A stretch of DNA of 64,000 nucleotides from Anaerolineae bacterium (GCA_027021705.1 JALUTT010000056.1:32001-96000); one strand, 5' to 3'; positions 1 to 20,081 are shown, counted from the first letter of the stretch. Program-made: numbers and translations. The notes: generated from the letters alone by a model not told the origin.

Positions 1-975
1 GCTCAGCGCCGCCAGGGCCTGGGCCTCCCGGACCCGACCTGCCCGTTCCGCCTCCCGCCTCAGCGCCTCGAAGCGCTCCAGGTCCACGATGGCCGGCCGC
101 CGCACCTCCCGGCTCCCCCGCCGGTAGGGGGAGGTGTGCAGGCAGCGCACCGTCACATCCACCAGCTCGCCCAGCGTCAGGGAGCCCTCAGTGCCGGCGC
201 AGAGATGATAGGTCATCCCCGGCCCGAAGCGCCGGTGCACCAGGTAGTGCAGGGCATCGGCCAGCCAATCCACGGGAATCAGGTCCACAGGACCATCGGG
301 GTCCCCCGGCAGGGCCGGCACCAGGTTGCTGGCAAGGAGGCGCAAGGTTTGGTGCAGGAAGTTGAACTGGCGCACCTCGCCCGTCCGGGAGTCCCCGATG
401 AGGCTGCTGGAGCGGTAGACGGCGATGGGCAAGTCCCCCATCAGCCCCCGCAAGTAGACCTCCGCCTCGTACTTGGTCTGCTCGTAGGTGTTGACGAAGC
501 CGGCCTGGTGAACCAGCTCCTCTTCCAGGATGCGGCCCACCCGCCGGCCGGCGACGTGGGCTGTGCTGACGTGGGCGACGGCCTCCACCCGCCGCCAGCG
601 GCGCACCTGGTCCATCAGGTTCACCACCCCCAGCAGGTTGACCTGTCGGGACTCGGCCAGGGGCCGACCGAAGTGGATGTCGGTGGCGCAGTGGACCACG
701 TGGGTAACCCGCCGGCAGAGCTCCGCGCGGACCTCCGGCGACAGTCCCAGGTCGGGAGCCGTCACGTCGCCGCGCACCGGCGTGATCCGGTCAAGGCGCT
801 CCGCCGGGGAGAGCCCCAGCGAGGCCAGGAGGTTTCGGAACCGGCCTGCCAGGTCCGCGTCGGAAGGGGCGCGGATCAGGGCGTAGACGTGGGCGTCACC
901 GGCCCTCAGGTAGCGGCGCAACAGCTCGCTGCCCACCAGGCCGGTGGCTCCCGTGAGGAAGACGACGGGTTGCAT
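1..975 (-). CDS. SDR-family oxidoreductase, thioester-reductase / fatty acyl-CoA reductase (male-sterility domain) type; 3' end runs off the window
   Basis: Manual reverse translation from ATG 975 gives MQPVVFLTGATGLVGSELLRRYL (Rossmann TGxxGxxG), GFVNTYEQTKYEAE (YxxxK) and YRSSSLIGDSRTGEV. No stop seen before position 1. It is absent from the ORF track because it has no stop. Confidence 0.85.
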   Translation of the reverse strand, partial: MQPVVFLTGATGLVGSELLRRYLRAGDAHVYALIRAPSDADLAGRFRNLLASLGLSPAERLDRITPVRGDVTAPDLGLSPEVRAELCRRVTHVVHCATDIHFGRPLAESRQVNLLGVVNLMDQVRRWRRVEAVAHVSTAHVAGRRVGRILEEELVHQAGFVNTYEQTKYEAEVYLRGLMGDLPIAVYRSSSLIGDSRTGEVRQFNFLHQTLRLLASNLVPALPGDPDGPVDLIPVDWLADALHYLVHRRFGPGMTYHLCAGTEGSLTLGELVDVTVRCLHTSPYRRGSREVRRPAIVDLERFEALRREAERAGRVREAQALAALS

Positions 976-1063
976 AGGCCACACCTCTCTGGATGCCGGG
1001 CGCTTGCGATCGCGGATCGCTCGAAGGCGCGTCCGGCGGTTCGTCCTACCGCAATCCGCCGGG

Positions 1064-1092
1064 ATTATACCTGCAACAGGGACGAAGGACAA
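1064..1092 (-). promoter_or_regulatory. sigma70-type promoter for the SDR gene
   Basis: Minus strand TTGTCC(1092-1087)-17 nt-TATAAT(1069-1064). Confidence 0.55.
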
Positions 1093-1153
1093 CCCGCAGG
1101 GACCCTCCCGCGGGTTCTCCCCACGGCACCGCGTGACCTGTGGGAGGGCGAGT

Positions 1154-1182
1154 TTGACTTTCCCGCCAAACGGATGCATAAT
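1154..1182 (+). promoter_or_regulatory. sigma70-type promoter for the dikinase operon
   Basis: TTGACT-17 nt-CATAAT, 25 nt before ATG 1207. Confidence 0.55.
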
Positions 1183-1206
1183 TTGCCTGCAAGGGATCAC
1201 ACAGCT

Positions 1207-2097
1207 ATGGACCACATAACCCTCTCCCCCACAGACGACTATCGGCACAGCCTGGAACCCGGTCAGCACGAAGCCTTCTACTTCCTCTTCACCGCTCAGG
1301 ACGGAGCGGTGTACGGCTTCCTGAGAACCCTCTTCGACCAGAAGACAGTGTTGGAGATGGCCGTTCTCCATTCCGGCGAGCGGACCTGGGCCTACCAGCG
1401 CCGTATCCCGCTCTCCGATACCCCGCCATCTCCCGGCGATGCTTCCGGTGACGCTCTGACGTTGACCTGTCTGGAGCCCTGGCAGTCGTGGCGCTGCCGC
1501 TTCCAGGGAACGGTGCGGGACGTGGCAGGGGAAGGGACGATGCCCGTCACGGTGGACCTGACCTTCGCCGCCATCAACGACCCGGCCCTCTACTCGTTCG
1601 GCCCCTACCACCAGGTCCAGCAAGACGGCCACGTCAGGGGTCAGCTTCAGATCGGGAGCCAGATATGGACGGGTGAGATGGTCTGCTGCCGCGACCGCAG
1701 TTGGGGGGTACGACCGATGGGCGTGGCCCTGAGGTGGACCCTGGCCTCCGTCCCCGACCGCCTCTACGCCGTGGTCGTGGAGACGCGGCAGGGGCCGGCT
1801 GGCTTTGGGCGCTTCCGCACGCCCGATGGTCCGTTCCGCCCCGTGCATCTCCTTCAGGTCGCCGCCACGGACGGAGGGTGGCGTCTGGAGGACCCGACAG
1901 CCGGACTGGCCGCCTGGCACGTACAGCGTATCGTCCCACCCCTGGTGGGCTACTTGGGCCCGGCAGGCCAGGAGGAGATGCGCACCGAACCTCGACCGGG
2001 TGACCTGCTGCGCGATGAACTGGGACCGGCCCTCTTCACCTCTCCCGAAGGGAAACGTTTGATCGGCTTTCTCGAACAGGCAGAGGGGCTGACATGA
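1207..2097 (+). CDS. Hypothetical protein with a probable AttH/CrtC/tocopherol-cyclase-like double beta-barrel fold
   Basis: True start is ATG 1207 (MDHITLSPTDD), since the upstream part of the ORF is antisense to the SDR. Motifs HEAFYFLF, CLEPWQSWR, HQVQQDGHVRG and RDRSWGVR resemble the GxRDHSWGxR family. The stop overlaps the next start (ATGA). Confidence 0.6.
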   Translation: MDHITLSPTDDYRHSLEPGQHEAFYFLFTAQDGAVYGFLRTLFDQKTVLEMAVLHSGERTWAYQRRIPLSDTPPSPGDASGDALTLTCLEPWQSWRCRFQGTVRDVAGEGTMPVTVDLTFAAINDPALYSFGPYHQVQQDGHVRGQLQIGSQIWTGEMVCCRDRSWGVRPMGVALRWTLASVPDRLYAVVVETRQGPAGFGRFRTPDGPFRPVHLLQVAATDGGWRLEDPTAGLAAWHVQRIVPPLVGYLGPAGQEEMRTEPRPGDLLRDELGPALFTSPEGKRLIGFLEQAEGLT

Positions 2098-3746
2098 CCG
2101 AATGGCTGCTGAGCGGCCACAACACTCAGGAATCCTTTGACATCACCCGGCCCGCGATCCTGACGATGGGTGAGGCCACCCTGGACGACCAGATCACCTG
2201 GTTTGTGGAGCAGTTGGCCGGGGATACCTCAGACCTCGATCCCACGTTGAAGCCCTCGGCCTTCGTCCAAGGCCGCTGTTACTTGAACATCGGCTACTTC
2301 GTGCGCAACATGGGGGCCGTCCTTCCCTTCGCCCCCGAGTCGGTGGGGGTGCCGGCCGACCTGATCCCGGCCAACATGACGCCCCCCGACCCCCCGCTCC
2401 GCCGAAAATTGCTGCTGCCTTGGCGGTTCCGCCGCGCCTATCGCTGGGCGAGCCATTTCTACCGCCACCGTTTCCCCAGGCTGGAACGTCGGCTGCGGGA
2501 GACCTATTGGCAACTGCGAGAGGGGTCTGACGATCCCCTCCCCCTCATCTGGTCCCTCTTCGAGCCCGACTTCTACGCGGAGGCTGAGGATAACTCCCGA
2601 GCCCACATCATCGCCGCACTGACCATCGCCGCACTGGATGGGGTGCTGCGCCAACGGGCGCCCCAGCTGCTCGGCCTCTTCGCCGGCCAGGAGACGACCA
2701 CCTCGCTGCTAGGCCAGCGCATCTGGGAACTGCGTCAGACGGCCGAGACCTGCGGGCCGGAGGTGCACCGGCTGCTCCGAGAGGGCGTGACCGACCTGGC
2801 AGCCTACGAGGCCCTGCCTGCAGCGGCCCCTCTGGTCGAGGGCATCCGCGCCTTCCTCCGCCAGTACGGCCACCGAGGCTTCCGCTACGAGGCCGACTGG
2901 GCGACCGAACGGCTGGCGGACCGGCCCGAGCACGTGCTGCTGGCAATAGCGGGACAACTGAGGGAGGCAGAGCCCCCGGAGGTGCGGGCGGAGGCGGCCC
3001 GCCAGGCGGGGATGGAAGCCCTGCGCCGGATGAACCCCCTCCGGCGAGCCCTTTGGCAGCGGCTCCTCCGCTGGGGACAGCAACTCATCGCCTGGCGAGA
3101 GGCTTCCAAGAGCGTCGGCGCCCTCCGCCAGGCGGCCTACGGGCTGGCAGCCCGGCTGTTGGCCCGCCATTTCTACCCCGACCAGCCCGACGACACGATG
3201 ATGTTCTACACCCTGGAGGAGTTCCTGGCCTTCGTGCGCAGCCAGGGGCAGGAGCGGGTGGATCAAGCAACCCTGGACCGCCGCCGCGCCCAGTTCGAAC
3301 TCTATCGGAACCAACCCCCACCCCCGGAACTGATCTGGTACAACCCCCACACCCGCCACTGGCGACCGGCCCTGGAGGTCGAGGAAGAGACGGCGGCCAC
3401 ACCGGCAACGCGGCTGGAGGGAATTGCGGCAAGCGCGGGAAGCGGGCCGGCCGAGGGAATCGCGGTGGTGACCAACGACCCCCTCGACGCCGGCCGAAGG
3501 CTGCTGGAAATGGAAGAGCCGGTGGTGCTGGTCACCCGGCTGACCGACCCCGCCTGGTCGGGACTCTTCCGGCGACTCAGCGCCGTCGTGACCGAACTGG
3601 GCGGGGTCATCTCCCACGCCGCCATCGTGGCCCGGGAGAACGGCCTCCCCGCCGTCGTCGGCGTCCCTGAGGTCACACGGCTGGTGCGAGATGGACAACG
3701 TCTGCGTGTGGACGGCGCGGCTGGCGTCGTCGAAATCCTGGAATGA
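2094..3746 (+). CDS. PEP-utilising-enzyme mobile (phospho-His swivel) domain protein with N-terminal RPH-like substrate-binding domain, paralogue 1
   Basis: C-terminal LVTRLTDPAW...VTELGGVISHAAIVARENGLPAVVG swivel signature. YGHRG and RExxK motifs typical of the rifampin-phosphotransferase/PigC middle domain. No ATP-grasp domain. Confidence 0.85.
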   Translation: MTEWLLSGHNTQESFDITRPAILTMGEATLDDQITWFVEQLAGDTSDLDPTLKPSAFVQGRCYLNIGYFVRNMGAVLPFAPESVGVPADLIPANMTPPDPPLRRKLLLPWRFRRAYRWASHFYRHRFPRLERRLRETYWQLREGSDDPLPLIWSLFEPDFYAEAEDNSRAHIIAALTIAALDGVLRQRAPQLLGLFAGQETTTSLLGQRIWELRQTAETCGPEVHRLLREGVTDLAAYEALPAAAPLVEGIRAFLRQYGHRGFRYEADWATERLADRPEHVLLAIAGQLREAEPPEVRAEAARQAGMEALRRMNPLRRALWQRLLRWGQQLIAWREASKSVGALRQAAYGLAARLLARHFYPDQPDDTMMFYTLEEFLAFVRSQGQERVDQATLDRRRAQFELYRNQPPPPELIWYNPHTRHWRPALEVEEETAATPATRLEGIAASAGSGPAEGIAVVTNDPLDAGRRLLEMEEPVVLVTRLTDPAWSGLFRRLSAVVTELGGVISHAAIVARENGLPAVVGVPEVTRLVRDGQRLRVDGAAGVVEILE

Positions 3747-5430
3747 CGTCCCTTCGCCTTCACCCCTGACGACGCCGGAACGGCGTCGGATTCCAGACAG
3801 ACACGGAGGCCCCTATGACCGAGCAGTCACCAAGCGGATACCCCCCGGGATCGCCGGACCACCCGACGACCGAGTGGCTGCTGAGCGGACACAACACCCA
3901 GGAGTCAACCGGCGTCGCCCGGCCGGTGACCGTGACGATGACCGAGGCCGGGCTGAATGCCCAGATCCGCTGGTTCCTGGGCCAGTTGGCCGGCGATACC
4001 TCAGACTTCGACCCAACCCTGCCTCCCTCGGCCGTCGTCCAGGGCCGGCTCTACCTCAACATCAACTACTACACCCGCAACATGGCCCTGGTGCTTCCCT
4101 TCGACCCCGAATCGGTGGGGGTGCCGGCCGACCTGGTGCAGGATACCGCCCAGATTCCCCGAGGGCGGCTGCTGCGCCTACCCGGTCGCTTCCGCCGCAT
4201 CTACCGTTGGGCGGCCGACTTCTACCGCCGTCGGCTGCCGGAGCTGGACCGCCGGCTGCGCGAGACCTACTGGCAGTTGCGCGAGGAGCCCGACGACGCC
4301 CTCCCCCTCATCTGGTCCCTCTTCGAGCCCGACTTCTACGCCTTCTCCCGGGAGACCGACCGGGCTCACATCGTCATCGCGCTGACCATCACGGCGCTGG
4401 ATGGGGTGCTGCGCCAGCGAGCGCCCCAACTGCTCAGCCTCTTCGCCGGCCAGGAGACGGCAACCTCGCTGATGGGGCAGCGCATCTGGGAACTGCGCCA
4501 GACAGCAGAAGCGTGCGGGCCGGAGGTCCATCGGCTGCTGCAGGAGGGGGTGGCCGATCTGGCAGCCTACGAGGCCCTGCCCGTAGCGACCCCTCTGGTC
4601 GAGGGCATCCGCGCCTTCCTCCGCCAGTACGGTCACCGGGGCTTCCGCTATGAAGCCGATTTCGAGACCGAGCGGCTGGCGGACCGGCCCGAGCACGTGC
4701 TGCTGGCGGTGGCGGGGCAGATGCGGGAAGAAGAGCCCCCGGAGGTGCGGGCGGAGGCGGCCCGCCAGGCGGGGATGGACGCCCTGCGCCGGATGAACCC
4801 CCTCCGGCGAGCCCTTTGGCAGCGGCTCCTCCGCTGGGGACAGCAACTCATCGCCTGGCGCGAGGACTCCAAGAGCAACATCGCGTTGCGTCAGGCCACC
4901 TATGGGCTGGCAGCCCGGCTGTTGGCCCGCCATTTCTACCCCGACCAGCCCGACGACACGATGATGTTCTACACCCTGGAGGAGTTCCTGGCCTTCGTGC
5001 GCAGCCAGGGGCAGGAGCGGGTGGATCAAGCAACCCTGGACCGCCGCCGCGCCCAGTTCGAACTCTATCGGAACCAACCCCCACCCCCGGAACTGATCTG
5101 GTACAACCCCCACACCCGCCACTGGCGACCGGCCCTGGAGGTCGAGGAAGAGACGGCGGCCACACCGGCAACGCGGCTGGAGGGAATTGCGGCAAGCGCG
5201 GGAAGCGGGCCGGCCGAGGGAATCGCGGTGGTGACCAACGACCCCCTCGACGCCGGCCGAAGGCTGCTGGAAATGGAAGAGCCGGTGGTGCTGGTCACCC
5301 GGCTGACCGACCCCGCCTGGTCGGGACTCTTCCGGCGACTCAGCGCCGTCGTGACCGAACTGGGCGGGGTCATCTCCCACGCCGCCATCGTGGCCCGGGA
5401 GAACGGCCTCCCCGCCGTCGTCGGCGTCCC
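3141..5430 (+). repeat. Direct repeat, identical by eye over ~527 bp, between the paralogues (3141-3667 = 4904-5430)
   Basis: Both copies read the same from gggctggcagcccggctg to gtcgtcggcgtccc, offset 1763. Confidence 0.85.
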
Positions 5431-5509
5431 CGACGTGACCCGCCGGGTACGCGACGGGCAGCGCCTGCGTGTAGACGGTGCCACCGGCATCGTCGAGATC
5501 CTGGAGTAA
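3815..5509 (+). CDS. PEP-utilising-enzyme mobile domain protein, paralogue 2
   Basis: Same architecture as 2094..3746 and highly similar to it; GGAGG RBS before the ATG. Confidence 0.85.
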   Translation: MTEQSPSGYPPGSPDHPTTEWLLSGHNTQESTGVARPVTVTMTEAGLNAQIRWFLGQLAGDTSDFDPTLPPSAVVQGRLYLNINYYTRNMALVLPFDPESVGVPADLVQDTAQIPRGRLLRLPGRFRRIYRWAADFYRRRLPELDRRLRETYWQLREEPDDALPLIWSLFEPDFYAFSRETDRAHIVIALTITALDGVLRQRAPQLLSLFAGQETATSLMGQRIWELRQTAEACGPEVHRLLQEGVADLAAYEALPVATPLVEGIRAFLRQYGHRGFRYEADFETERLADRPEHVLLAVAGQMREEEPPEVRAEAARQAGMDALRRMNPLRRALWQRLLRWGQQLIAWREDSKSNIALRQATYGLAARLLARHFYPDQPDDTMMFYTLEEFLAFVRSQGQERVDQATLDRRRAQFELYRNQPPPPELIWYNPHTRHWRPALEVEEETAATPATRLEGIAASAGSGPAEGIAVVTNDPLDAGRRLLEMEEPVVLVTRLTDPAWSGLFRRLSAVVTELGGVISHAAIVARENGLPAVVGVPDVTRRVRDGQRLRVDGATGIVEILE

Positions 5510-5522
5510 GGGAGATAGACGG

Positions 5523-6476
5523 ATGAGCGAGATCCTCTTCACCCCCTGGGAAGGAGACGAGGAGCGCCCCCTCCCACCCTTGGAAGCGGTAGGTGGCAAA
5601 GGGCACGGTCTCTACTGGTTGGCCATTCACGGCTTTCCTGTGCCCCCCACCTGGGTGCTCAGCACGGCCGCCTTCGACCTGGCCCTCCAGCGAACCGGAC
5701 TGGGGGAGCAGGTTGCGGAGATCGAGCGAACCATCCTCAGCCTTGAGGACGATTGGGCCACATCCCAGGAAGCGTTGAAAACCCTGGAGCCGATACGCCA
5801 GAAAGTGTCCACGGCGCTGCAACGGGTCGCCCTGCCCGATCGGGTGGGCCGGGCGTTGGAAAAACTGGTGTTGATGCCCACCCAGTGGGCGGTCCGTTCC
5901 TCCGCCACGGCGGAGGACAGCCTCCAGCACAGTTTCGCCGGCCAATTCCTCTCGCTGCTCTCCGTGCCCTCAGGGGTAGCCCTTTGGAAGGCCGTGCGCC
6001 AGGTGTGGGCCTCGGCCTTCGGCCAGAAGGCGCTCACCTACTGTGCCCAAAACCGGATCCCACTCCCCAAGATGGCGGTGATCCTCCAGCCTATGTCCCC
6101 CATCACCGCTCGGGACCGATCGGGCGTGATCTTCAGCCACTCGCCGGTGCCCACGCTGCCCGGCGTGTTGATCCAGGTCGCCTTTGGGACAGGTGAAGTG
6201 GTTGTCGGAGGCTACGGCGGCGACCTTTACAGTGTGCAGGGGGACGAGGTCCAAATCCAGCCGATGCCGGCCGCCCACATCCGGGTGACCGATCCCAAGG
6301 GCTACACGACAAGGGCGGCAACCCCTCCCGGGACAGCCCTCACCGAAGCGGAGGCCCGGCACCTGGCCGCCCTGGCCCTGCAGGTCTCCGAGCAATGGGG
6401 AGGGCCGGTGAACATCGAGTTCGTGTGGCAGGCGGGTCAGGACCCCGTCTTGGTCCAGGTCCGTCCTGCCAAGTAG
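5523..6476 (+). CDS. Stand-alone PEP/pyruvate-binding (PPDK/PEP-synthase N-terminal ATP-grasp) domain protein
   Basis: VGGKG, GFPVP, AVRSSATAED, SFAGQF, MAVILQ, SGVIFS, NIEF and LVQVRP motifs; start ATG 5523 after GGAG. Confidence 0.9.
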   Translation: MSEILFTPWEGDEERPLPPLEAVGGKGHGLYWLAIHGFPVPPTWVLSTAAFDLALQRTGLGEQVAEIERTILSLEDDWATSQEALKTLEPIRQKVSTALQRVALPDRVGRALEKLVLMPTQWAVRSSATAEDSLQHSFAGQFLSLLSVPSGVALWKAVRQVWASAFGQKALTYCAQNRIPLPKMAVILQPMSPITARDRSGVIFSHSPVPTLPGVLIQVAFGTGEVVVGGYGGDLYSVQGDEVQIQPMPAAHIRVTDPKGYTTRAATPPGTALTEAEARHLAALALQVSEQWGGPVNIEFVWQAGQDPVLVQVRPAK

Positions 6477-6608
6477 CGTCGCGGGGAGAGCAGTGGTGTC
6501 TACCGTACGATTCAAATGATCAAGCAGGCTACAGGCCGGGAACCGGAGATCTACCTGGAAGGGAATGAACTGGTGGTCTCTCTGCCTCGAAGGGCCAGGG
6601 GGTAAGGG

Positions 6609-8348
6609 ATGAACCGTACACGGCTTGTCTTCTTCGTCATTCTCTTGGTGGCCTTTTTGATCGTAAGCATCGGGCTGCTGATGCGGGGTCTCCGGCAGAT
6701 CGCCGGTCCAGCAGGTGCCGGGGAGGTCGGTACCCCGCTGCCGCGCGACGCCATCGTCGTCTCCATCCAATCATCCAACACCAAGCAGGATTGGATGAAC
6801 CAGGTCGTGGAGTCCTTCAACGCAGCGGGCTATACCGTGGAAGGGCGGCCCATCGTCGTCACCGTGGAGCACGTGGGCTCCGGCAGTTCGATGCAGGCCA
6901 TCCTCGACGGGGAGGTGCAGCCCGTGGTCTGGAGCCCCGGCAGCAACCTCTGGGTGACCCGCATCAACCAGGCCTGGGAGGACCGGACGGGGCGGCGGCT
7001 GATCACCGGAGACTGCCCGGCTACGCTGCGCCTCCCTTTGGGCATCGCGATGTGGCGTCCGATGGCCGAGGCCCTGGGCTGGCCCGACAAGCCCATCGGC
7101 TGGAACGACATCGCCGCCCTGGCCAACGCTCCGGAGGGCTGGGCGGCCTACGGCCATCCCGAGTGGGGCCAGTTCAAGTTCGGCCACGCCCACCCGGAGC
7201 ACTCCAACTCCGGGATGCTCTCCATCGTCGCCGAGGTCTACGCGGCGGTGGGTACCACCGAGGGGCTCACCGCCGAGATGGTGAAGAGCGCCCCGGTGGT
7301 CGAGAGCATGCGGGCCGTTGAGCAACGGGTCTTTCATTACGGCAAGAAGGATACCGACATCCTGCTTCGGATGACCCAGCGGGGCCCCGAGTACCTCCAC
7401 GCCGTCACCAGCTACGAGGCCAACGTCATCAAGTGGAATCGGGACCACGCCGACGAACTGCGCTTTCCCCTGGTGACCATCTACCCCAGCGACGGCACCT
7501 TCTGGGTGGAGAACCCCTACTGCATCCTGGACAACGCCGACTGGGTGAGCGAGGAGCAGAAGGAGGCTGCGGCCATCTTCCGGGACTACCTCCTCTCACC
7601 GGAGCAGCAGGCGCGGGCGGTGGACTGGGGGCTGCGACCGGCAGATCCCAACGTTCCTCTACGCACTCCCATTGACCTGGAGCATGGGGCCATTCCTTCC
7701 ATCACAATGAACGACGTCCCCCACCTGGCCTACCCCTCCGATGCCATCGTAGGACACATCCTCGATGTCTGGCACCAGGTCAAGAAGAAAGCCACCGTCG
7801 TCCTCCTGCTGGACACCTCCGGGAGCATGCGAGGGGAGAAGATCAAGGGGGCGGTCGAAGGGGCGACGCTCTTCTTGGAGCAGATGTACCCCGACGACGA
7901 GGTCTACGTCATCACCTTTGCCACCGACGTGCTCGAACTGCCGACTTCCGGGCGGGTAGGGGTCGTAGGGGAGTCATTGCGCACCTCGCTTCAGGGCCTC
8001 TACGCCGAAGGGTCAACGGCCCTTTACCAGGCGGTCCTCCAGGCCCTGAGGCGCATCGAGGAGCTACGGGCCGAGGATGAAGCGGCGGGGGAGGCCCGTA
8101 TCTACGGCATCGTCTTGCTCTCCGATGGGAAGAACGAGATCGTGGGCGGTCCTTCGTGGAACGACGTCCTCAGCCGCCTCCCGTCGGGGATGGAGGCCAG
8201 CGGCGTCAAGATCTACACCGTCGCCTACGGGGAAGATGCCGACGAGGACGTGCTCCGCACCCTGGCCAACCGGACCAACGGGAAGTTCTTCACCGGTGAT
8301 GTAAAGAACATCGCCGATGTTTACTTCCTGATCTCGTCGGAGTTCTGA
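6609..8348 (+). CDS. Membrane-anchored extracellular solute-binding-like domain fused to a C-terminal VWA domain
   Basis: N-terminal TM; HPEHSNSG SBP-like region; VWA MIDAS LLDTSGSM, GSTALY, VLLSDG, YTVAYG. Confidence 0.85.
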   Translation: MNRTRLVFFVILLVAFLIVSIGLLMRGLRQIAGPAGAGEVGTPLPRDAIVVSIQSSNTKQDWMNQVVESFNAAGYTVEGRPIVVTVEHVGSGSSMQAILDGEVQPVVWSPGSNLWVTRINQAWEDRTGRRLITGDCPATLRLPLGIAMWRPMAEALGWPDKPIGWNDIAALANAPEGWAAYGHPEWGQFKFGHAHPEHSNSGMLSIVAEVYAAVGTTEGLTAEMVKSAPVVESMRAVEQRVFHYGKKDTDILLRMTQRGPEYLHAVTSYEANVIKWNRDHADELRFPLVTIYPSDGTFWVENPYCILDNADWVSEEQKEAAAIFRDYLLSPEQQARAVDWGLRPADPNVPLRTPIDLEHGAIPSITMNDVPHLAYPSDAIVGHILDVWHQVKKKATVVLLLDTSGSMRGEKIKGAVEGATLFLEQMYPDDEVYVITFATDVLELPTSGRVGVVGESLRTSLQGLYAEGSTALYQAVLQALRRIEELRAEDEAAGEARIYGIVLLSDGKNEIVGGPSWNDVLSRLPSGMEASGVKIYTVAYGEDADEDVLRTLANRTNGKFFTGDVKNIADVYFLISSEF

Positions 8349-9556: not shown

Positions 9557-11044
9557 TTGGACGATCGAACCCGAAGACCGCATAGTCGGGTGGAGAGGTT
9601 GAGAGCGAACGCTGTCGGCCTCTCCCTCGCTTTTGGAGCGCCCCTGGGGCTTTTCCTCGCCACGATGGCCCCAGGGCTCACCTGGGCCCACGCCGGGGCC
9701 GACGGTGGGGACCTGATCACCGCCGCCTACACCCTGGGCATCCCCCATCCTCCCGGCTACCCTACCTATACTCTCCTGGCCTGGCTCTTCACCCGGCTGC
9801 CCGTGGGGAGTGTGGCTTGGCGCGTCCACCTGCTCTCCGCCGGAGCCACGGCGGGGGCGGCAGCGTTGCTCTTCGAGACCGTGCAGATGTGGGTCGGGGG
9901 AAGGGCCTGGAAGCGGACGGTGGCCGGCCTGGGCGCGGCCTGGAGCCTCGCCTTTGCCCCTCTGGTCTGGTCCCAAGCGATCATCGCCGAGGTCTACGGC
10001 GTCGCTCTCCTCTGGACGGGGCTGGTCTTGCTTCTGGCCTCCCGCCTAGCCCGGGCACCGGTCCCCGGGACGGCACGCCGCTGGGCCTTCCTCCTGGGGC
10101 TCTCCTGGAGCCTGGGGTTGGGGGTCCACCTGACCCTCGTCTTCCTGATCCCCCTGGTGATCTGGGCCGTCCATCGGTCGGAACGGGTCGCCTGGGCCTC
10201 CCTGGCGGGAGGCGTCCTGCTGGGCCTTGCCGTCTGGCTCTACCTGCCCCTGCGGGCCGGACGGGGAAGCGTCACCTGGGGGGAACCGACGGACTGGGCC
10301 GGCTTCTGGTGGCTGGCCTCAGGAGCCCTCTACCGGGGATACCTCTTCGCCCTGCCCGCCCAGGCCCTGCCCGCCCGCCTCGCCTTCCTGCTCCGGCGGA
10401 TGAGCGGTGACCTGGGGTGGCTGGGGGTGATCTGGGCCGGCTGGGGGGTGGGGTGGTTGAAGTCCCACCGCCCCGGCCTGCTGGGGGCAACGGCCCTCAG
10501 CGCAGGGCTCTTCACCGTTTACGCGGTGGGCTACAACACCGCCGACTCCTACGCCTACCTCCTCCCCGTCTTGGCCATCCTCGCTCTGTGGGCAGGGATC
10601 GGGCTGGGAGAGGTGGTGGCACGGGCCGGACGGCGCTGGGGACCGGTCCTGGCCCTGGGAGTGCCGCTGGTCGTGCTGGGGCTGAACTACTCCGCCCTCG
10701 ACCTGAGCCGGGAGCGGGAGGCGCGGGACTTCGTCGCCGGCGTTGAGGCGGCTGCGCCGCCGGGGGCCATCGTGGTGACGGACGCCGACGGCCAGACCTT
10801 CGCCCTCTGGTACGCCCGATTCGTCGAGGGACGACGCCCCGACCTGATCGTGGTGGACCGAGCACTGTGGGGTTATCCCTGGTATCGGCGCTGGCTGGCC
10901 CGGCGCTGGCCTGATCTGGCGGTCCCTTCCGGCGGAGGGGTAGAGGCACTTCTGACCGCCAATCCGGAGCGCCCCTTCTGCGAGGTCCCCGTGGTATGGG
11001 AGGGGGCTTTGACCTGCGTAACTGTTCACCCTCCCGCAGGTTAG
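9557..11044 (+). CDS. DUF2723 / TMEM260-like GT-C membrane glycosyltransferase (start uncertain)
   Basis: DGGDL...GIPHPPGYPTY, WSQAIIAEVY, YLPLR and YLLP motifs; many TM helices. Confidence 0.85.
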   Translation: MDDRTRRPHSRVERLRANAVGLSLAFGAPLGLFLATMAPGLTWAHAGADGGDLITAAYTLGIPHPPGYPTYTLLAWLFTRLPVGSVAWRVHLLSAGATAGAAALLFETVQMWVGGRAWKRTVAGLGAAWSLAFAPLVWSQAIIAEVYGVALLWTGLVLLLASRLARAPVPGTARRWAFLLGLSWSLGLGVHLTLVFLIPLVIWAVHRSERVAWASLAGGVLLGLAVWLYLPLRAGRGSVTWGEPTDWAGFWWLASGALYRGYLFALPAQALPARLAFLLRRMSGDLGWLGVIWAGWGVGWLKSHRPGLLGATALSAGLFTVYAVGYNTADSYAYLLPVLAILALWAGIGLGEVVARAGRRWGPVLALGVPLVVLGLNYSALDLSREREARDFVAGVEAAAPPGAIVVTDADGQTFALWYARFVEGRRPDLIVVDRALWGYPWYRRWLARRWPDLAVPSGGGVEALLTANPERPFCEVPVVWEGALTCVTVHPPAG

Positions 11045-11200
11045 GCGCGTTTCCGACGCGAAACCGTGCTTCAAATAGCCCATCGGGGCTGAAAGCGCCC
11101 TCGACCGGTGACCTGCGGGGGGGTAAGCTGATCTGGCCTGCGGGGAGTAGGACGTATCAGCTTTCAAGGCAGGGCTTATCAACGCTTTAACCTGGCGCAG

Positions 11201-11229
11201 TTGACGGAAAGAGGGAGTTGGTTTACAAT
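11201..11229 (+). promoter_or_regulatory. sigma70-type promoter for the surface-protein/glycan locus
   Basis: TTGACG-17 nt-TACAAT. Confidence 0.65.
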
Positions 11230-11334
11230 TTGCCTTTAGTCTCCCCTACCACAACGTGTTGGGGGGCTCCGGCGTCTCGGAGGGGCGACGCAGAGCTGAA
11301 TCTGCCGGGCTAACACGTGTTTAGGAGGAAAACG

Positions 11335-11736
11335 ATGGCGCAAGGACGATGGTTTATTGGGCTCCTAGTCCTGGGGCTCCTGGTTGGCGTAGGCAGCCAG
11401 GCGCTTGGCGGACGTGTCGTGTGGGCCGTAGGTCCCCACAGCGCCTTCCGTCAGACGGTCCCGACGCCGACGCCGACACCTGTCCCCCCCACTCCCACGC
11501 CTCTGCCCCCACCTCCGACAGCGACACCGGTCCCCCCGCCTCCCCCTACGGCGACGGTCACGGCCCCGGAGCCGACGCCGACGGCTCTGGTGGGCGGGGT
11601 CTCCGTGCAGGCGGATCCATCCCTGCTACCGGAAGCGGGCAGCCGGCTTCCCCTGAGGGGTTGGATCGGCGGTGGGCTGATGCTGCTGGGTATGGTGGCC
11701 TGGACCCTTGCCCTCTGGCGCAGAGGGCTTCGATGA
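11335..11736 (+). CDS. Small secreted Pro/Thr-rich protein with an LPxTG-like sorting signal
   Basis: AGGAGG RBS; signal peptide; PT repeats; LPEAG followed by a hydrophobic helix and WRRGLR tail. Confidence 0.75.
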   Translation: MAQGRWFIGLLVLGLLVGVGSQALGGRVVWAVGPHSAFRQTVPTPTPTPVPPTPTPLPPPPTATPVPPPPPTATVTAPEPTPTALVGGVSVQADPSLLPEAGSRLPLRGWIGGGLMLLGMVAWTLALWRRGLR

Positions 11737-11751
11737 AAAGGGAGAAGAGCT

Positions 11752-13416
11752 TTGGATCGCAATCGGCTCCTAAACCTCACCCTCCTCGTTGTGGCCGGCC
11801 TGGCGGCAGTCTCACTGGCAGTGTCCGCCAGCCGTTCCGACTGGGCCACGGCCTCTCAACCTGCGGAACGGCTGACCATTCCTACCCCCACCCCCACCCT
11901 GGTGCCCTCGTCCTACGCCCCCGTCGTCGTCAAGAACTATCCCTCCCTCAGCCAGGCAGCAGCCACCACCTTTCCCAACTGCCGCTACGGTGTCGCCGCC
12001 TGGCAAAACCAGATGCAGAACTTCGACATCGTCTCCAATCTGGGGGTGGGTTGGTACCTGGACTTCACGACCCACGAGACCCCTCCGGGACCGGCCCAAG
12101 CCGAATACGTGCAGATGGTCCGGCTGTCGCAGGATCGGGGGGAGAGCGACACCTGTGGGCCTGACTACGGCTACTCGGTCTCGCCTCCTCTGACGGACGC
12201 CGGCCTGGGTGCGCTGGTGGACGCCAACCCGGGGGCGCTGTGGATCGTCGGCAACGAGCCAGACCGCCGAACGGTGCAGGATGACATCTGTCCGCAGCAG
12301 TACGCCGAAGCCTACCACGACGTCTACCAGTTCATCAAAAGTCGGGACCCAACGGCCCAGGTCGCCGTGGCCGGCCTGGTGGAGGTCTCCCCGGGCCGCC
12401 TGCAGTACCTGGACATCGTCTGGGAGACCTACCTGGAGAAGTACGGCACGCCAATGCCGGTGGACGTGTGGACCGTCCACGTCTACATCCTGTCGGAGTC
12501 GAACGAGGGCGACGCCCACATCGCCCTGGGCACCGATCCCGCCCTGGCCATCCCCCACAGCTCCGATTGTGCCGACCCCAACTCCTACTGCTACGCTGAG
12601 CACGACGACGTGAACCTCTTCGCCGAGCAGATCGTGAGGATGCGGGAGTGGATGAAACGCCGTGGTCAGCAGAACAAGCCCCTGCTGATCACCGAGTACG
12701 GTATCCTGCTCCCCTATAACTACTACGGCACCTGCACCCTCGAAACCTGCCCGCCGGAGGGAGCGCCGGGCTGCTTCTGTGACGAGAACAAGGAAACCTT
12801 CCACCCTCGGCGTGTCGCCGACTACATGACGGCCACCTTCGACTACCTGATGACGGCGACCGACCCAGACCTGGGCTATCCCGCCGATAACTACCGTCTG
12901 GTCCAACAGTGGCTCTGGTTCAGCCTGGCCTACGATCGGGAGGGTCACGCCAGCAACTTGATGGACTCCGACACCTACACCCTTACCCTGCCGGGATGGA
13001 CCTGGCGCAACTACGTGGCGACCATCTCCCCCACGATCAACCTGATCCCGGCTCAGGTGCCGGTGATCGTGGCGCGATCCGCCAACGGCACGGGTCCGGT
13101 AACGGTTACCCTGACCGCTGAGGTGAGGAACAACGGCAACGCCACCTCGGCAGGGACGGTGACCGTCACCTTTTACAGCGACGCAGGATTGACGACACCC
13201 ATCGGCTCGGCGACTTTCACCGACCTGGGAGGGTGTGCGCGACGCGCAGCCGTGGTGACGACCACGTGGGCCAATCTGGAGACGGGCTTGCATCCCTTCT
13301 GGGTGCGGGTGGATAGCACCGACGTGATCAACGAGAATGGGGAGGCAGACAACGTCGCGCAGGGAGCGGTTATGGTCAACCCCTTCGATCTCTTCCTCCC
13401 AGTACTTCTGCGATGA
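11752..13416 (+). CDS. Secreted clan GH-A-like glycoside hydrolase domain with C-terminal CARDB domain
   Basis: Signal peptide; WIVGNEPD (acid/base) and LLITEYG (nucleophile); CARDB-like VRNNG...VD...E.NE.DN; ends FLPVLLR. Confidence 0.7.
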   Translation: MDRNRLLNLTLLVVAGLAAVSLAVSASRSDWATASQPAERLTIPTPTPTLVPSSYAPVVVKNYPSLSQAAATTFPNCRYGVAAWQNQMQNFDIVSNLGVGWYLDFTTHETPPGPAQAEYVQMVRLSQDRGESDTCGPDYGYSVSPPLTDAGLGALVDANPGALWIVGNEPDRRTVQDDICPQQYAEAYHDVYQFIKSRDPTAQVAVAGLVEVSPGRLQYLDIVWETYLEKYGTPMPVDVWTVHVYILSESNEGDAHIALGTDPALAIPHSSDCADPNSYCYAEHDDVNLFAEQIVRMREWMKRRGQQNKPLLITEYGILLPYNYYGTCTLETCPPEGAPGCFCDENKETFHPRRVADYMTATFDYLMTATDPDLGYPADNYRLVQQWLWFSLAYDREGHASNLMDSDTYTLTLPGWTWRNYVATISPTINLIPAQVPVIVARSANGTGPVTVTLTAEVRNNGNATSAGTVTVTFYSDAGLTTPIGSATFTDLGGCARRAAVVTTTWANLETGLHPFWVRVDSTDVINENGEADNVAQGAVMVNPFDLFLPVLLR

Positions 13417-16001
13417 AGCGAGCCCGGAACCTGGTGGACGAAGGTCTATCGGCCCAAGGGCCTGATGAGCGTCCCCCCAGGGGGGACGCTCAAGGGCATC
13501 CGTTCACCTCGCTAGTGAGAAAGCGTTCTCTCGCCCTGGCCATCTCCCTGTTCGCTCTGAGCTTTGCCACCTATTACCGCACGCTGCAACCCTCCGTAGG
13601 CGATTTCGGGGACAGCGCCAAGTTCCAACTCGCTGCCTACACGCTGAGCGTTCCCCACGCAACGGGCTATCCCCTTTACATCGCCCTCGCCAAGCTCTTC
13701 ACCCTGCTTCCCATCCGTGACGTGGCTTTTCGGGTGAACCTCTTCTCCGCCCTATCGGCGGCGCTGGCCGTCGCATTCCTGGGGGCCGTGATCCGGCGGA
13801 AGACCGGCAGCCTGGTAGCTGCCGGCACTGCCGCGCTCCTCTTCGCCTGGTCCCCCACCTTCTGGTCCCAGGCCGTCATCGCCGAAGTCTATGCGCTCCA
13901 CGCTGCCCTGATGGCTCTGCTCCTCCTGTTCCTCTTCCGCTGGCAGGAGCGGGGGGAGCGCTCTCTGTACGCGGGCTTCCTCGCCGTCTACGCCCTCGGC
14001 CTCGGCAACCACGCCTCGATGGTCCTGCTCGCACCCGCCTTGCTCTGGCTCGTGGGGACGACGGACCGTCGGATGCTGACGCAGCCCCGCAACCTGGCCC
14101 TCGCTGCCGGCATCCTGGCGCTGGGAGCCAGTCAGTACGGCCTCCTATACCTCCGAGCCCGCCAGCATCCCCCCTTCTGCGAGTACTGCCCCGACACCCC
14201 CGCGAAGCTGCGATGGTACCTGTCGGGAGCCCAGTTCCGCTCCCACTTCTTCGCTTTCTCCTGGCAGGAAGTGGGAAAGCGTGTCGCCGGCTATGTCCAT
14301 CTGCTGTGGGCCGAGTACGGCTCACTCCCGTTGGGGGCGGGTCTCCTAGGGGTGCTCTCCTCGGCCCGGACCGGATGGCGAAGACAGATCTTCCTGTTGC
14401 TGGCTTTTCTGTCCACCGTGCTCTTCGCCACGAGCTACGACGTCCCCGACTACGCCAACTTCCTGATCCCCTCTTACCTCATCTTCGCCCTCTGGATCGG
14501 GGATGGCTTCGCAGCCCTCATCCGCCGGATGGCCTGGCTGGCCCGGCAGGTGGGCGGGAGCAGGCTCTATGTGCGCCTACCCGGAGGCTGGACAAACCTG
14601 GGTCGTGGAGCCCTGGTCTTGGCGATGCTGGGGCTGGCGGTCCGCCCCCTCTACGCCAACTACGCCGTGGTGGACGAGAGCCGCAACAACTCAGCACGGG
14701 AGGAGGCCACAACGCTGTTGGACATGCTGGAGGAAGAGGCCCTCCTCGTTTTGCCCCCCTGCTGTGACTTCTACAACCAAGCTATGGGGATCCGATACCT
14801 GCAACTGGTCGAAGGGGTACGGCCCGACGTGGCGGTCTACACCCTCCCCTACGTCCGAAAGGAGCCCGGTCGCGTCGTCCGCCCTTCCTTCACGCCCCAA
14901 GGGAAACCGGAGCGAATGGTGCTCCAGGCAGAGGGAGGACGCCTCCGGCCCGCCTACCTCCCTTGGCTGAGCGCTCCTCGCCGTGCCGTCGTAGAGGAGG
15001 AGTTCCTGCTGCGGCCCGTAGACTCTTCCCAGGTCCCCATCGCCGACCTGCTGGCAGCGGTGCCGACCGGCGCCATCGTGGTCCTGGTCGCCCGCCAGCC
15101 CCTCCCCTTTCCCCTCGCCGATGCCCAGACTCAAGGTGCCGTGGCCGCCGCCCTGCGCCGGCTGGGGTTTGACGGGGTCGTGTGGCGTGGGTGGGGGGCT
15201 CACGTCCTCATCGGTGTGGAGGGGGCCGAGCCGGGCACGGCCCTCAGTCGGTGGGATCCCCAGCGGGTTGAAGTCCGGCTGCGGCCAGGGGATCCCATCG
15301 GATCCACCGGCACCGTCGCCCCTGTAGCCCTCCGGCTCATCTCGGCGGGAGACGATGCCGACATCATCGTCAACGGCACCAACGTCTCCCCCCACCACTG
15401 GGGCTACAACCTGGCCATCCTCGACCCACGGTCAGGCGACCTGGTGGAGACCGCCTACTTCGACGTGACGAGTTTCCGGGTCAACAACGTGCGGGTGTAC
15501 CGCATCGCCGCCGTCCGCGATGGCGAGCGGATTGTGCGGATGGATCCTACCGTCTGGCGTCCACCGAGGGAGCAACTGGACTTCCGAGATCCGGCGGTCA
15601 CCTGGTTTCTGGAGGAGGGATGGTCCGCCCCCGAACCTTGGGGAACGTGGGCAACAGGCCGGGAGTCCCGGCTTCAGGTCAGCCTGCCTCCCGGCCCTCC
15701 CTACCGGTTGACGATGGAAGTGGTGCCCTACTGTCCCACCCCCAACGCCCGCCAGACCATCCGCGTGCTCTGGAATGGCACACCATTGCAAGATTTGGCC
15801 TTCGAGGGCTGCCGCTCCCAGACGTTTAGCCTTTCGCTGCCAGCCGGACTCGTCAGCGGCGATGTGGACCAACTGACCTTCCGGTATGGCTATGCCATCT
15901 CTCCCTTCGAGGCTTCGGGGGGGAGCGACGGGGACCGTCGCCAACTCGCGGTTGGCTTCACACGGCTGCGATTTGAGCCCTTGGCCGAGGAGGACCGGTG
16001 A
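13413..16001 (+). CDS. DUF2723 GT-C glycosyltransferase with ILEI/FAM3-like and C-terminal beta-sandwich domains
   Basis: GDSAKFQ...VPHATGYPLY, FWSQAVIAEVY; GYNLAILDP...FD ILEI-like; GWSAPEPWGTW...DRRQLAVG. Confidence 0.8.
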   Translation: MKRARNLVDEGLSAQGPDERPPRGDAQGHPFTSLVRKRSLALAISLFALSFATYYRTLQPSVGDFGDSAKFQLAAYTLSVPHATGYPLYIALAKLFTLLPIRDVAFRVNLFSALSAALAVAFLGAVIRRKTGSLVAAGTAALLFAWSPTFWSQAVIAEVYALHAALMALLLLFLFRWQERGERSLYAGFLAVYALGLGNHASMVLLAPALLWLVGTTDRRMLTQPRNLALAAGILALGASQYGLLYLRARQHPPFCEYCPDTPAKLRWYLSGAQFRSHFFAFSWQEVGKRVAGYVHLLWAEYGSLPLGAGLLGVLSSARTGWRRQIFLLLAFLSTVLFATSYDVPDYANFLIPSYLIFALWIGDGFAALIRRMAWLARQVGGSRLYVRLPGGWTNLGRGALVLAMLGLAVRPLYANYAVVDESRNNSAREEATTLLDMLEEEALLVLPPCCDFYNQAMGIRYLQLVEGVRPDVAVYTLPYVRKEPGRVVRPSFTPQGKPERMVLQAEGGRLRPAYLPWLSAPRRAVVEEEFLLRPVDSSQVPIADLLAAVPTGAIVVLVARQPLPFPLADAQTQGAVAAALRRLGFDGVVWRGWGAHVLIGVEGAEPGTALSRWDPQRVEVRLRPGDPIGSTGTVAPVALRLISAGDDADIIVNGTNVSPHHWGYNLAILDPRSGDLVETAYFDVTSFRVNNVRVYRIAAVRDGERIVRMDPTVWRPPREQLDFRDPAVTWFLEEGWSAPEPWGTWATGRESRLQVSLPPGPPYRLTMEVVPYCPTPNARQTIRVLWNGTPLQDLAFEGCRSQTFSLSLPAGLVSGDVDQLTFRYGYAISPFEASGGSDGDRRQLAVGFTRLRFEPLAEEDR

Positions 16002-16004
16002 CCT

Positions 16005-17270
16005 GTGACGCCCGTTCTGGAGTTTGAGCACGTCGCCAAGAAGTTTATCCTGCGCCCCACCAAGCCCCGCTCCCTGCAGGAGATGGTCATCGCCTGGCTC
16101 CGGCGGCAGAAGGCGGAGAGCAAGGAGTTCTGGGTCCTGCGGGACATCTCGCTGACGGTCCGGCGGGGGGAGGTCGTCGGCGTCGTCGGCGACAATGGTA
16201 CCGGCAAGAGCACGTTGCTGAAGCTGGCCGCCCGGATCATCGAGCCTACCCGGGGGAAGGTGGTGGTCAACGGGCGGGTGGGGGCCTTGCTGGAGCTGGG
16301 CGTCGGTTTTCACCCCGACCTAACGGGACGGGAGAACATCTACTTGAGCGCAGCCCTGGTGGGGCTGAGCCGGCGAGAGATCCTCCCCCTCGTGGAGGAG
16401 ATCATCGCCTTCTCCGGCATCGGGGAGTTCATTGATGTTCCCGTCCGCCACTACTCCTCCGGCATGCTGGTTCGGCTGGGCTTCTCCGTCGCCACCAGCA
16501 TCAAACCCGACATCCTGCTGGTGGACGAAGTGCTGGTCGTGGGCGATCAGACCTTCCGCCAGCAGTGCGTGCAGCGTATCGAAGAGATGCGGGCCGAGGG
16601 CACCGCCATCCTCTACGTCTCCCACAACCTGGACGAGATCCGCCGCCTCTGCGATCGGGCCCTCTGGCTCGACGAAGGGCTGATCCAAGTCGAGGGCCAT
16701 CCCGACGAGGTGGTGCAAGCTTACATGAACCACACCCTCCGAGAACGCCAGCTGAAGGTCCGGGCGCTGGGTGATCAACAGTGGCGGGGGTGGCACCTGG
16801 GCAGCGGCGAGGTGGAGATCACCGGTATCTTCACCCTGAACGGCGAAGGAGACCTGTGCGACACCTTCGTGAGTGGCTCCCCCTTCGTCGTGCGCATTGA
16901 CTACCGCTGCCGCCAACCTGTCGCGGCGATGGCCTTTGGGCTGAGCATCTACACCGAGGATGGCATCTGGGTCACCAGCCCCAACTCCATCGCCCAGGCC
17001 GACCGTCTCGCCCCCGGCCCTTCGGGGAGCGTCTACTACGTGGTGGACAGCCTGCCGCTGCGGGCGGGTACTTATGAACTCACCGCAGCCGTCTTCGATC
17101 CCACAGCACCGGAGTACAAGCCCTACGATCACCTCCACCGGGTGCATCAGTTCACCGTGCAGGAGGGGGCGATGCCCCAGGACGGCCTGGTGGAGCTCCC
17201 CCACCGCTGGCTGGACGAGGAGGGGTGGACCCGGCTGCACGACCATCGGGAGAAGGTGGGCTATGGATGA
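16005..17270 (+). CDS. wzt: Polysaccharide ABC transporter ATP-binding protein with C-terminal carbohydrate-binding domain
   Basis: GDNGTGKST, GFHPDLTGREN, YSSGMLVRLGF, LVDEVL; GSGEVEI Wzt_C start. Confidence 0.9.
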   Translation: MTPVLEFEHVAKKFILRPTKPRSLQEMVIAWLRRQKAESKEFWVLRDISLTVRRGEVVGVVGDNGTGKSTLLKLAARIIEPTRGKVVVNGRVGALLELGVGFHPDLTGRENIYLSAALVGLSRREILPLVEEIIAFSGIGEFIDVPVRHYSSGMLVRLGFSVATSIKPDILLVDEVLVVGDQTFRQQCVQRIEEMRAEGTAILYVSHNLDEIRRLCDRALWLDEGLIQVEGHPDEVVQAYMNHTLRERQLKVRALGDQQWRGWHLGSGEVEITGIFTLNGEGDLCDTFVSGSPFVVRIDYRCRQPVAAMAFGLSIYTEDGIWVTSPNSIAQADRLAPGPSGSVYYVVDSLPLRAGTYELTAAVFDPTAPEYKPYDHLHRVHQFTVQEGAMPQDGLVELPHRWLDEEGWTRLHDHREKVGYG

Positions 17271-20080: not shown

Positions 20081-20081
20081 G

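Follow-up and report, generated by a model that had tools for sequence, protein, structure and literature searches.

To our knowledge, the anaerobic oxidation of the cholesterol side chain is as yet the one pathway in which a kinase-lyase pair is known to carry out an ATP-dependent dehydration. The present work concerns a four-gene unit that may carry out such chemistry with another kind of kinase. The unit lies at 1207-6476 of a stretch of 64,000 nucleotides (nt) from an Anaerolineae bacterium (GCA_027021705.1 JALUTT010000056.1:32001-96000, or G000:C56:32001-96000 in our numbering), which is called the window below and belongs to a genome (G000) of 5.19 Mb in 183 contigs. In the closest described system, that of Sterolibacterium denitrificans, the kinase 25-HSK and 25-phosphosteroid lyase (25-PSL; PDB 9fzn, 9g2i and 9g4c) dehydrate a tertiary steroid alcohol in two steps: the unreactive alcohol is phosphorylated, and the phosphate is then eliminated (PMC8449060). 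According to that report, 25-HSK is a 40-kDa member of the 'phosphotransferase' family, its reaction alone is fully reversible, with a group-transfer potential of the tertiary phosphoester as high as that of ATP, and no lyase candidate is described near its gene (PMC8449060). The same logic is proposed here, and both the fold (Z 25) and an RDxSWGxR motif are common to 25-PSL and the barrel protein of the window. The kinases differ: 25-HSK is an APH-type enzyme that makes ADP, whereas the window encodes an unrelated three-domain phospho-His dikinase distributed over two proteins, with the kinase and barrel genes in one operon. Unlike the 25-PSL system, which acts on a steroid, the unit has no steroid genes nearby, and its barrel protein is far diverged (30 bits against a cut-off of 150 for the family Rv3169_fam).

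The dikinase resembles another described group. HpeHI, CreHI and PpsAB (phenylphosphate synthase) form an established two-component subfamily of RPH-like dikinases with a separate ATP-grasp protein, a second protein that carries the substrate domain and the swivel His in a T/SxxGGxxxH motif, and RPH-like folds; according to PMC12167813, PpsAB has the dikinase stoichiometry, ATP -> AMP + Pi. The comparison with phenylphosphate synthase made in an earlier reading of the window from its sequence alone (the sequence-only reading) was therefore apt. These enzymes phosphorylate phenols, their products feed carboxylases, and none is reported with a barrel lyase (PMC12167813). HpeH has a mass of 71 kDa, whereas the corresponding protein of the window is shorter (550 amino acids, aa), and in contrast to the known pairs, several such genes share one ATP-grasp gene. 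Rifampin phosphotransferase (RPH; 5fbs/5fbt/5fbu and 5hv1), the best solved match of both dikinase subunits, would use the same three-domain swivel mechanism; it is a single chain (ATP-grasp, rifampin-binding and swivel domains) that acts by inactivating an antibiotic, and no lyase is paired with it, whereas the enzyme of the window is split. Class III/IV lanthipeptide synthetases, which join a kinase and a phospho-lyase domain, follow the same idea by phosphorylating Ser/Thr and then beta-eliminating (PMC10604976), but their folds are unrelated, their substrate is a peptide, and no conserved precursor peptide gene was found here. A lanthipeptide-like peptide substrate was considered and is unlikely, as no small conserved open reading frame (ORF) accompanied the unit when ORFs from 15 loci were clustered.

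The sequence-only reading had listed a barrel gene, two paralogous genes for substrate-binding and phospho-His proteins without an ATP-grasp domain, and a stand-alone ATP-grasp gene; all four were found on the plus strand.

1207-2097, plus strand: gene A, 296 aa, double barrel of the AttH fold
1690-1713, plus strand: codons of the A motif R162-D163-R-S165-W166-G167-V-R169
2094-3746, plus strand: gene B1, 550 aa, helical substrate-binding domain and phospho-His swivel domain (His508)
3815-5509, plus strand: gene B2, 564 aa, paralogue of B1, second specificity/carrier subunit, with no A of its own
5523-6476, plus strand: gene C, 317 aa, stand-alone ATP-grasp (PPDK_N) subunit

On balance, it is probable that B and C phosphorylate an alcohol via phospho-His and that A eliminates the phosphate, which would amount to an ATP-driven dehydration. 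The analysis shows how the domains are arranged, which folds the proteins adopt, the motif in common, the strict co-occurrence and the co-diversification of A and B, the presence of one C per genome, and the kinase-barrel pairings and fusions in relatives; the chemical steps that follow, the AMP + Pi stoichiometry and the substrate class are inferred. C would bind ATP and phosphorylate the swivel domain of B1 at His508 or that of B2 at His522. Within that B protein, the swivel domain would deliver the phosphate to the helical substrate domain, where a hydroxyl of a small molecule would be phosphorylated. A would then bind the phosphoester and expel phosphate at its RDxSWGxR site, so that a C=C bond is formed. 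Overall, the reaction would be alcohol + ATP -> alkene + AMP + 2 Pi; RPH likewise splits ATP to AMP + Pi. B, usually together with its own A, would set the substrate specificity, and C would serve as a shared power unit. The substrate is probably a hydrophobic small molecule, as the barrel fold and the RPH-like helical domain suggest. Because the 25-HSK step is reversible, a dikinase would supply extra driving force and pull the reaction forward; this may be why the lyase branch recruited a dikinase.

The assignment of B and C to the RPH type rests on domain, profile and model comparisons. The swivel (PEP-utilizers) domain was found by Pfam at the C-terminus of B1 (E 3e-22) and B2 (E 9e-23), and the two proteins matched positions ~520-864 of the 864-residue rifamycin phosphotransferase model of NCBIfam (E 8e-38 and 2e-38, respectively). 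The RPH, PigC and RedH models were covered over roughly their final two-fifths only, the PigC/RedH ligase models being matched at E 2e-23 to 8e-28. No PPDK_N or ATP-grasp domain was detected in B1 or B2 in the Pfam and NCBIfam scans. In C, PPDK_N was the one domain found (E 1e-44; profile positions 2-309 of 328), with RPH's ATP-grasp domain (5hv6) as its best solved match (E 1e-20). When a profile of 44 B homologues was compared with the PDB, Listeria RPH (5fbs) ranked first (E 2e-33). The predicted model of B1 (pLDDT 88.5) matched RPH-Lm in Foldseek (5fbu, E 7e-19; TMq 0.68-0.70, with 0.70 for 5hv1) over ~600 columns; therefore, the whole of B corresponds to the rifampin-binding and swivel domains of RPH. 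B homologues carry PF27448 as a precomputed Pfam annotation.

In the B1 motif T500-E-L-G-G-V-I-S-H508, T500, G503 and H508 were invariant and G504 was conserved in at least 90% of the 44 sequences; the carrier His of B2 is His522. By its sequence, this motif fits the T/SxxGGxxxH pattern around the carrier His that PMC12167813 describes for two-component dikinases. These comparisons support B and C as a predicted split RPH-type dikinase, as the sequence-only reading had proposed; in such an enzyme, both components would be needed, and ATP would be converted to AMP + Pi through a phospho-His intermediate. The same genome also encodes three fused, full-length RPH-like dikinase paralogues on other contigs (33-36% identity; open frames of 816-1191 aa):

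G000:C171:12961-15618: fused RPH-like paralogue
G000:C105:22968-25568: fused RPH-like paralogue
G000:C50:28123-30264: fused RPH-like paralogue

The predicted model of A (pLDDT 94.5, pTM 0.92) was matched in Foldseek first by 25-PSL (9fzn, 9g4c and 9g2i; top 9fzn, E 1e-11) and then by AttH (2ich), fungal Diels-Alderases and kievitone hydratase. Alignment with VIA-align gave Z 25.3 for 25-PSL (9g2i; root-mean-square deviation (rmsd) 2.8, 258 residues) and Z 25.3 for AttH (2ich; rmsd 3.0, 267 residues), so that the earlier description 'AttH/CrtC-like' was right at the level of the fold. The pericyclases CghA, Phm7 and Fsa2 (Z 22-23) and kievitone hydratase (Z 22) were the next folds.

It was the sequence that set 25-PSL apart. 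In a search of PDB sequences with a profile of 34 A-family members, the 25-PSL chains were the only match (E 0.008), over RDRSWGVRP, a segment that is letter-for-letter identical between A and 25-PSL; R162, D163, S165, W166, G167 and R169 were invariant in the 34 members. The PDB holds two 25-PSL sequences, and 9g4c (lyase with phosphate and product) has Asn, at the position of D163 of A, where 9fzn has the motif Asp. The deposited sequences suggest that 9g4c is a deliberately inactivated variant, which would mark a catalytic residue. When the A family was compared by hhalign with six Rv3169/25-PSL-like proteins, the probability was 96.7% (E 4e-10), and the motif as well as a conserved Gln stood at matching positions; a Mycolicibacterium protein of the Rv3169 family matched 25-PSL at E 2e-74. 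The sequence evidence thus points specifically to the lyase branch within the AttH fold, and A is proposed to be a putative phosphoester (C-O) lyase. The sequence-only reading had placed reduction first, then cyclisation or hydration and then phosphorylation. Because the relatives of A at the sequence level are phosphate-eliminating lyases, A is placed after the kinase, not before it, and the earlier order found no support.

The A family proper is small. It comprised 68 mostly unnamed proteins, the few names being those of Anaerolineae/Thermoflexales hypothetical proteins. When 1.84 billion representatives were searched exhaustively with a profile, there were 155 matches at E <= 1e-3 and only 24 at E <= 1e-30; R[DEN]x[ST]WGxR was present in 76 of 121 distant matches. 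No Pfam model, including those of the CrtC/AttH/kievitone hydratase families, DUF7065 and DUF7064, matched A at E <= 0.01. None of the 34 family members matched the CrtC/AttH Pfam models at E <= 1, and DUF7065 was weakly matched by 5 of the 34 (best E 7e-4). The copy in the window was the only A-like gene found across its genome.

Several observations weigh against the assignment of A as a lyase and against its role in a dehydration. AttH, whose function is unassigned, ties with 25-PSL at Z 25.3, and hydratases and Diels-Alderases are near at 22-23; therefore, the fold alone does not single out the lyase reaction. In the structural alignment, A is only 16% identical to 25-PSL. Its match to Rv3169_fam (NF053593; E 2e-7, 30.2 bits) falls far under the cut-off of 150 and spans residues 83-173 only; judged by these scores, A is a distant relative of this subfamily and not a member. 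The exact RDxSWGxR was absent in 3 of 17 full-length core representatives, and the catalytic role of the Asp altered in 9g4c is read from the deposited sequences. B genes without a barrel gene of their own occur (B2 here, one in the array of genome G001, the solitary B of G602, and at least one in G002 at a contig end), and stop codons interrupt two of the A copies found in relatives. Finally, the substrate is not indicated, because no other gene is conserved beside the unit.

The membership of A in the unit was examined by scanning one genome per species with the A family. Of the 26 loci returned, 14 held clear relatives (31-64% identity), all in Chloroflexota metagenome-assembled genomes (MAGs), and 12 held weak matches in Proteobacteria and Actinobacteria, with no B or C there. 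B was the neighbour of A in 14 of 14 related loci; it came immediately downstream in the same orientation in 13 of them and lay convergently in L024, which bears out the earlier assignment of A to the unit. C followed B in 6 of these loci; in 5, the contig ended in or at B, L021 ended inside an array, and L020 and L024, from one MAG, had no C nearby. Five genomes without C at the locus each contained exactly one C orthologue (52-58% identity; other matches E 8e-26 or weaker), which closed an A/B array at its 3' end in 4 of the 5. Extension of this search to 14 genome handles (5 + 9; G004/G677 and G005/G587 are the same genomes, which leaves 12 distinct genomes) gave exactly one C orthologue in 14 of 14, against 1-5 B genes.

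Similar results were obtained with broader samples. Among 400 genomes of the class, A was present in 8 and B (counted at E <= 1e-60) in 9; both occurred in 8 genomes and were adjacent in all 8. Each of the 9 B-holding genomes had one C orthologue, next to B in 8. The ninth, G602 (88% complete), had no A within 5 kb of B and none was found in the genome; its lone B (L064, G602:C125, 5026-6669) lies between genes for molybdopterin-dehydrogenase FAD/2Fe-2S subunits and an aminotransferase gene, with C on another contig. In 400 genomes of the phylum and in three other genomes of the same order, where A only was searched, A was found in 0. About 18 other genomes carry the unit in all, several of the class-sample genomes being those behind L014, L015, L019 and L025. 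The unit is rare and patchily distributed, and these observations support the view that A belongs to it together with B and C. A complex prediction for A with B1, made with both proteins entered as alignments and without controls, counts neither way: with a mark of 0.32, its scores were 0.00, 0.43 and 0.12.

In the genomes examined, the genes take the form [A-B(-B)]n-C, with the following counts:

Own genome: A 1, B 2, C 1
G001: A 4 (one broken by stops), B 5, C 1
G002: A 2, B 5, C 1
G003: A 1, B 3-4 (pieces at contig ends), C 1
G004: A 2 (one with TAA), B 2-3, C 1
G005: A 1, B 1, C 1

In G001, they form a ten-gene array on one contig (L049, G001:C15, 214-13636) in the order A-B-B-A-B-(A)-B-A-B-C, where the A in brackets is the stop-broken copy. 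The five B genes of this genome fell into separate old clades of the B tree, each with orthologues elsewhere. After 3 duplicate rows and copies with internal stops or less than 90% coverage had been dropped, trees of 27 B rows and 20 A rows were compared and agreed in 3 of 3 testable pairings: own A with L013 A as own B1 with L013 B, G001 A_214 with L019 as B_1261 with L019, and G001 A_4635 with L020 as B_5513 with L020. As judged from these trees, A and B diversified together, with A evolving faster than B (median end branch 0.35 vs 0.19). From the gene counts, one ATP-grasp subunit C probably serves several B specificity subunits, as the sequence-only reading had suggested for a single locus.

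The two B genes of the window are 85% identical at the protein level (469/549), and they share an identical tract:

3153-3602 in B1 (codons 354-503) and 4916-5365 in B2, plus strand: identical tract of 450 nt, with 100% nucleotide identity in three consecutive 50-codon windows

Outside the tract, the synonymous difference was 0.18-0.55 per 50-codon window, and the nucleotides differed by 10-31%; the first 150 codons were the most divergent (pN 0.15-0.28). The tract is probably due to gene conversion over the linker/swivel region; an effect of MAG assembly is the alternative explanation. In the proposed scheme, this linker and swivel part must dock on the shared C. In the B tree, B2 was sister to B1 plus the single B of L013 (support 99); therefore, the B1/B2 duplication predates the split from the L013 relative.

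Relatives of the barrel were found beside kinases of other kinds. Six of the 12 weak loci were inspected, and in 4 of them an Rv3169-family gene stood directly beside an APH-family kinase gene (L037, 7595-9852; L038, 7370-9678; L030, 7883-10113; L027, 8950-11053; from Mycolicibacterium, Nocardia and Panacagrimonas); the barrel genes of these four loci exceeded the Rv3169_fam cut-off (320-495 bits). The pair is followed by a gene for a luciferase-like monooxygenase in L037 and by a zinc-dependent alcohol dehydrogenase gene in L038. In L033, a P450 gene lay beside the barrel, and in L031 the neighbours were uninformative. These gene arrangements suggest that kinase-lyase pairs are widespread in Mycolicibacterium, Nocardia and Panacagrimonas.

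Barrels of the DUF7065/DUF7064 type share the RDHSWGxR motif and are paired with or fused to RPH-type dikinases. Two B genes of G002 that lack an A are each followed by a 315-317-aa DUF7065+DUF7064 protein carrying RDHSWG; in L065 (G002:C40, 4802-10176), the order is B, DUF7065/DUF7064 barrel, B, DUF7065/DUF7064 barrel and then a PAS-STAS protein. A itself did not match the models of these two families at the threshold given above; the relation was seen in a profile-profile comparison, in which a G002 DUF7065/DUF7064 protein was aligned to the A family by hhalign with a probability of 96.6%. The 1178-aa protein P0225 joins PPDK_N, swivel, DUF7065 and DUF7064 in one chain with RDHSWGVR, and by its domain content it is a natural fusion of a whole RPH-like dikinase with the barrel; one member of the P0225 cluster, to which P0336 belongs, bears a name that gives a Thermoplasmata archaeon as its source. 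A further protein, P0329, contains part of DUF7065 and an EcKL kinase-like stretch. Taken together, the data suggest that kinases with two or more unrelated folds have been recruited by the lyase family.

Other explanations of the unit were weighed against the ATP-driven dehydration. The same relay might operate with A using phosphate as the leaving group for a carbocation-type cyclisation, rearrangement or substitution, so that A would be a monophosphate counterpart of the terpene cyclases or part of a PigC-type 'phosphorylate, then condense' reaction. The pericyclases and kievitone hydratase that follow 25-PSL and AttH in the fold comparison (Z 22-23 and 22), the matches of B to the PigC/RedH ligase models (E 2e-23 to 8e-28) and the faster evolution of A (0.35 vs 0.19), which might be expected if the product outcome varied, all speak for it. 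Nevertheless, this explanation is rather unlikely, for the sole sequence-level relatives of A and the shared motif belong to an eliminating lyase, and no enzyme or carrier for a second substrate is conserved nearby. An order in which A acts first as a hydratase or cyclase that makes the alcohol, which B and C then phosphorylate to a phosphoester that is the product or goes to enzymes with genes elsewhere, as with HpeHI and PpsAB, is held to be unlikely. CrtC-type and kievitone hydratases have the same fold, A precedes B in gene order, and the known two-component dikinases give stable phosphoesters used by later enzymes (PMC12167813); however, neither A nor any of the 34 family members matches the CrtC/AttH Pfam models, while 5 of the 34 weakly match DUF7065, A has the 25-PSL motif with the very Asp that is changed in 9g4c, and no downstream enzyme is conserved, nor is the neighbouring reductase gene described below.

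It is quite improbable that B and C form an RPH-like kinase that inactivates antibiotics or xenobiotics and that A is a passive ligand-binding or sequestering barrel. Such a role would suit the several specificity paralogues per genome, the self-contained and patchy nature of the unit (8/400 in the class sample, 0/400 in the phylum sample and 0/3 in its own order) and the position of RPH as the closest solved relative of B and C. However, A has an invariant polar motif in common with an enzyme, and a dikinase-barrel fusion exists. Moreover, none of the four proteins reaches the cut-off of the rifamycin-inactivating phosphotransferase equivalog (NF041857, 999 bits), the scores being 130 for B1, 132 for B2 and 114 for C. 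An antibiotic target would not itself exclude a kinase-lyase mechanism. That A is functionally unlinked to B and C, its adjacency being chance or a leftover, is scarcely credible given the adjacency in 14 of 14 loci, the near-perfect co-occurrence, the matching trees and the fusions in relatives.

The remaining features of the region are as follows:

<1-975, minus strand: gene for a short-chain dehydrogenase/reductase (SDR; NAD_binding_4 / thioester-reductase type, E 1e-52), divergent from A
1092-1064, minus strand: second promoter-like site, facing the SDR gene
1154-1182, plus strand: sigma-70-like promoter site before A, TTGACT-17 nt-CATAAT, 10 of 12 consensus positions
6609-8348, plus strand: gene for a 579-aa protein with an N-terminal membrane anchor, an SBP_bac_11 solute-binding domain and a C-terminal VWA domain
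9557-22450, plus strand: genes for a TMEM260-like/PMT mannosyltransferase, a Wzt-type ABC exporter and GT1/GT2/GT4 glycosyltransferases, after an OmpR-type response regulator gene

The genes of the unit are closely packed. The ATG of B1 overlaps the TGA of A by 4 nt (ATGA), the spacer between B1 and B2 is 68 nt long, and the ATG of C lies 13 nt past the B2 stop with GGGAGA in front of it; the GTG at 5478 called by the ORF finder is a less likely start of C than the ATG at 5523. Two promoter-like sites were found in 950-6700, where 0.2 were expected, and both lie in the 231-nt gap between the SDR gene and A, pointing away from each other. The GC content of the region is ~0.66-0.70. The divergent acyl-CoA/thioester-reductase SDR gene named in the sequence-only reading is present and encodes 375 aa at full length (read on L012). 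Its proposed part in the pathway was not upheld, since a homologue was found in none of the 14 related loci (E < 1e-5), and ORF clustering showed that only A, B, C and their shadow frames are widely shared among the 15 loci.

The gene for the solute-binding VWA protein was not kept beside the unit in related loci; one weak VWA match lay 6 kb off in L024. The genes at 8.8-22.5 kb (response regulator, glycosyltransferases and ABC exporter) were considered as parts of the pathway and appear unrelated; the region at 9557-22450 looks like a cell-surface glycan locus. Upstream of the window (L012, 10506-12539, G000:C56), a NERD nuclease domain is fused to a UvrD-type helicase, and this gene is flanked on both sides by genes for DUF11 surface-repeat proteins, one of 1667 aa. 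As members of the unit, these DUF11 proteins and the NERD-UvrD helicase were likewise considered and appear unrelated. None of the PADLOC anti-phage models matched A, B2 or C, and B1 gave one chance-level match of 16 bits.

Taken singly, split RPH-like dikinases and kinase-lyase dehydration are already known. The combination of a dikinase with the barrel, the small A subfamily and the [A-B]n-C arrays that share one ATP-grasp gene appear in no paper found. The literature search, whose coverage did not include subscription journals, turned up no paper that describes the structure of 25-PSL or the pairing of a dikinase with a barrel. It is a fairly improbable extension of the proposed reading that the arrays form a plug-in toolkit with one ATP-grasp engine and interchangeable carrier/specificity subunits, each of which would pass a monophosphate ester on to a barrel of its own that ionises it. 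If the barrels also cyclised, rearranged or alkylated their substrates via a carbocation, they would constitute a new class of phosphate-leaving-group enzymes parallel to the terpene cyclases. Such enzymes would prepare the activated substrate themselves, starting from plain alcohols, and would occur in anaerobic Chloroflexota and, via related barrels, in archaea.

A phospho-His dikinase spends two anhydride bonds and would thereby render the kinase-lyase chemistry irreversible. With a single ATP-grasp gene for as many as five specificity subunits, the arrays show a way in which a dikinase that is split can be multiplexed. The substrates, once found, could tell by what route unreactive and perhaps tertiary hydroxyls on isoprenoids, steroids or xenobiotics are activated or removed in uncultured anaerobes, and they could also yield new biocatalysts for mild, regioselective dehydration. 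Their discovery would, in addition, provide the DUF7064/DUF7065 and Rv3169 families with a function that can be tested.

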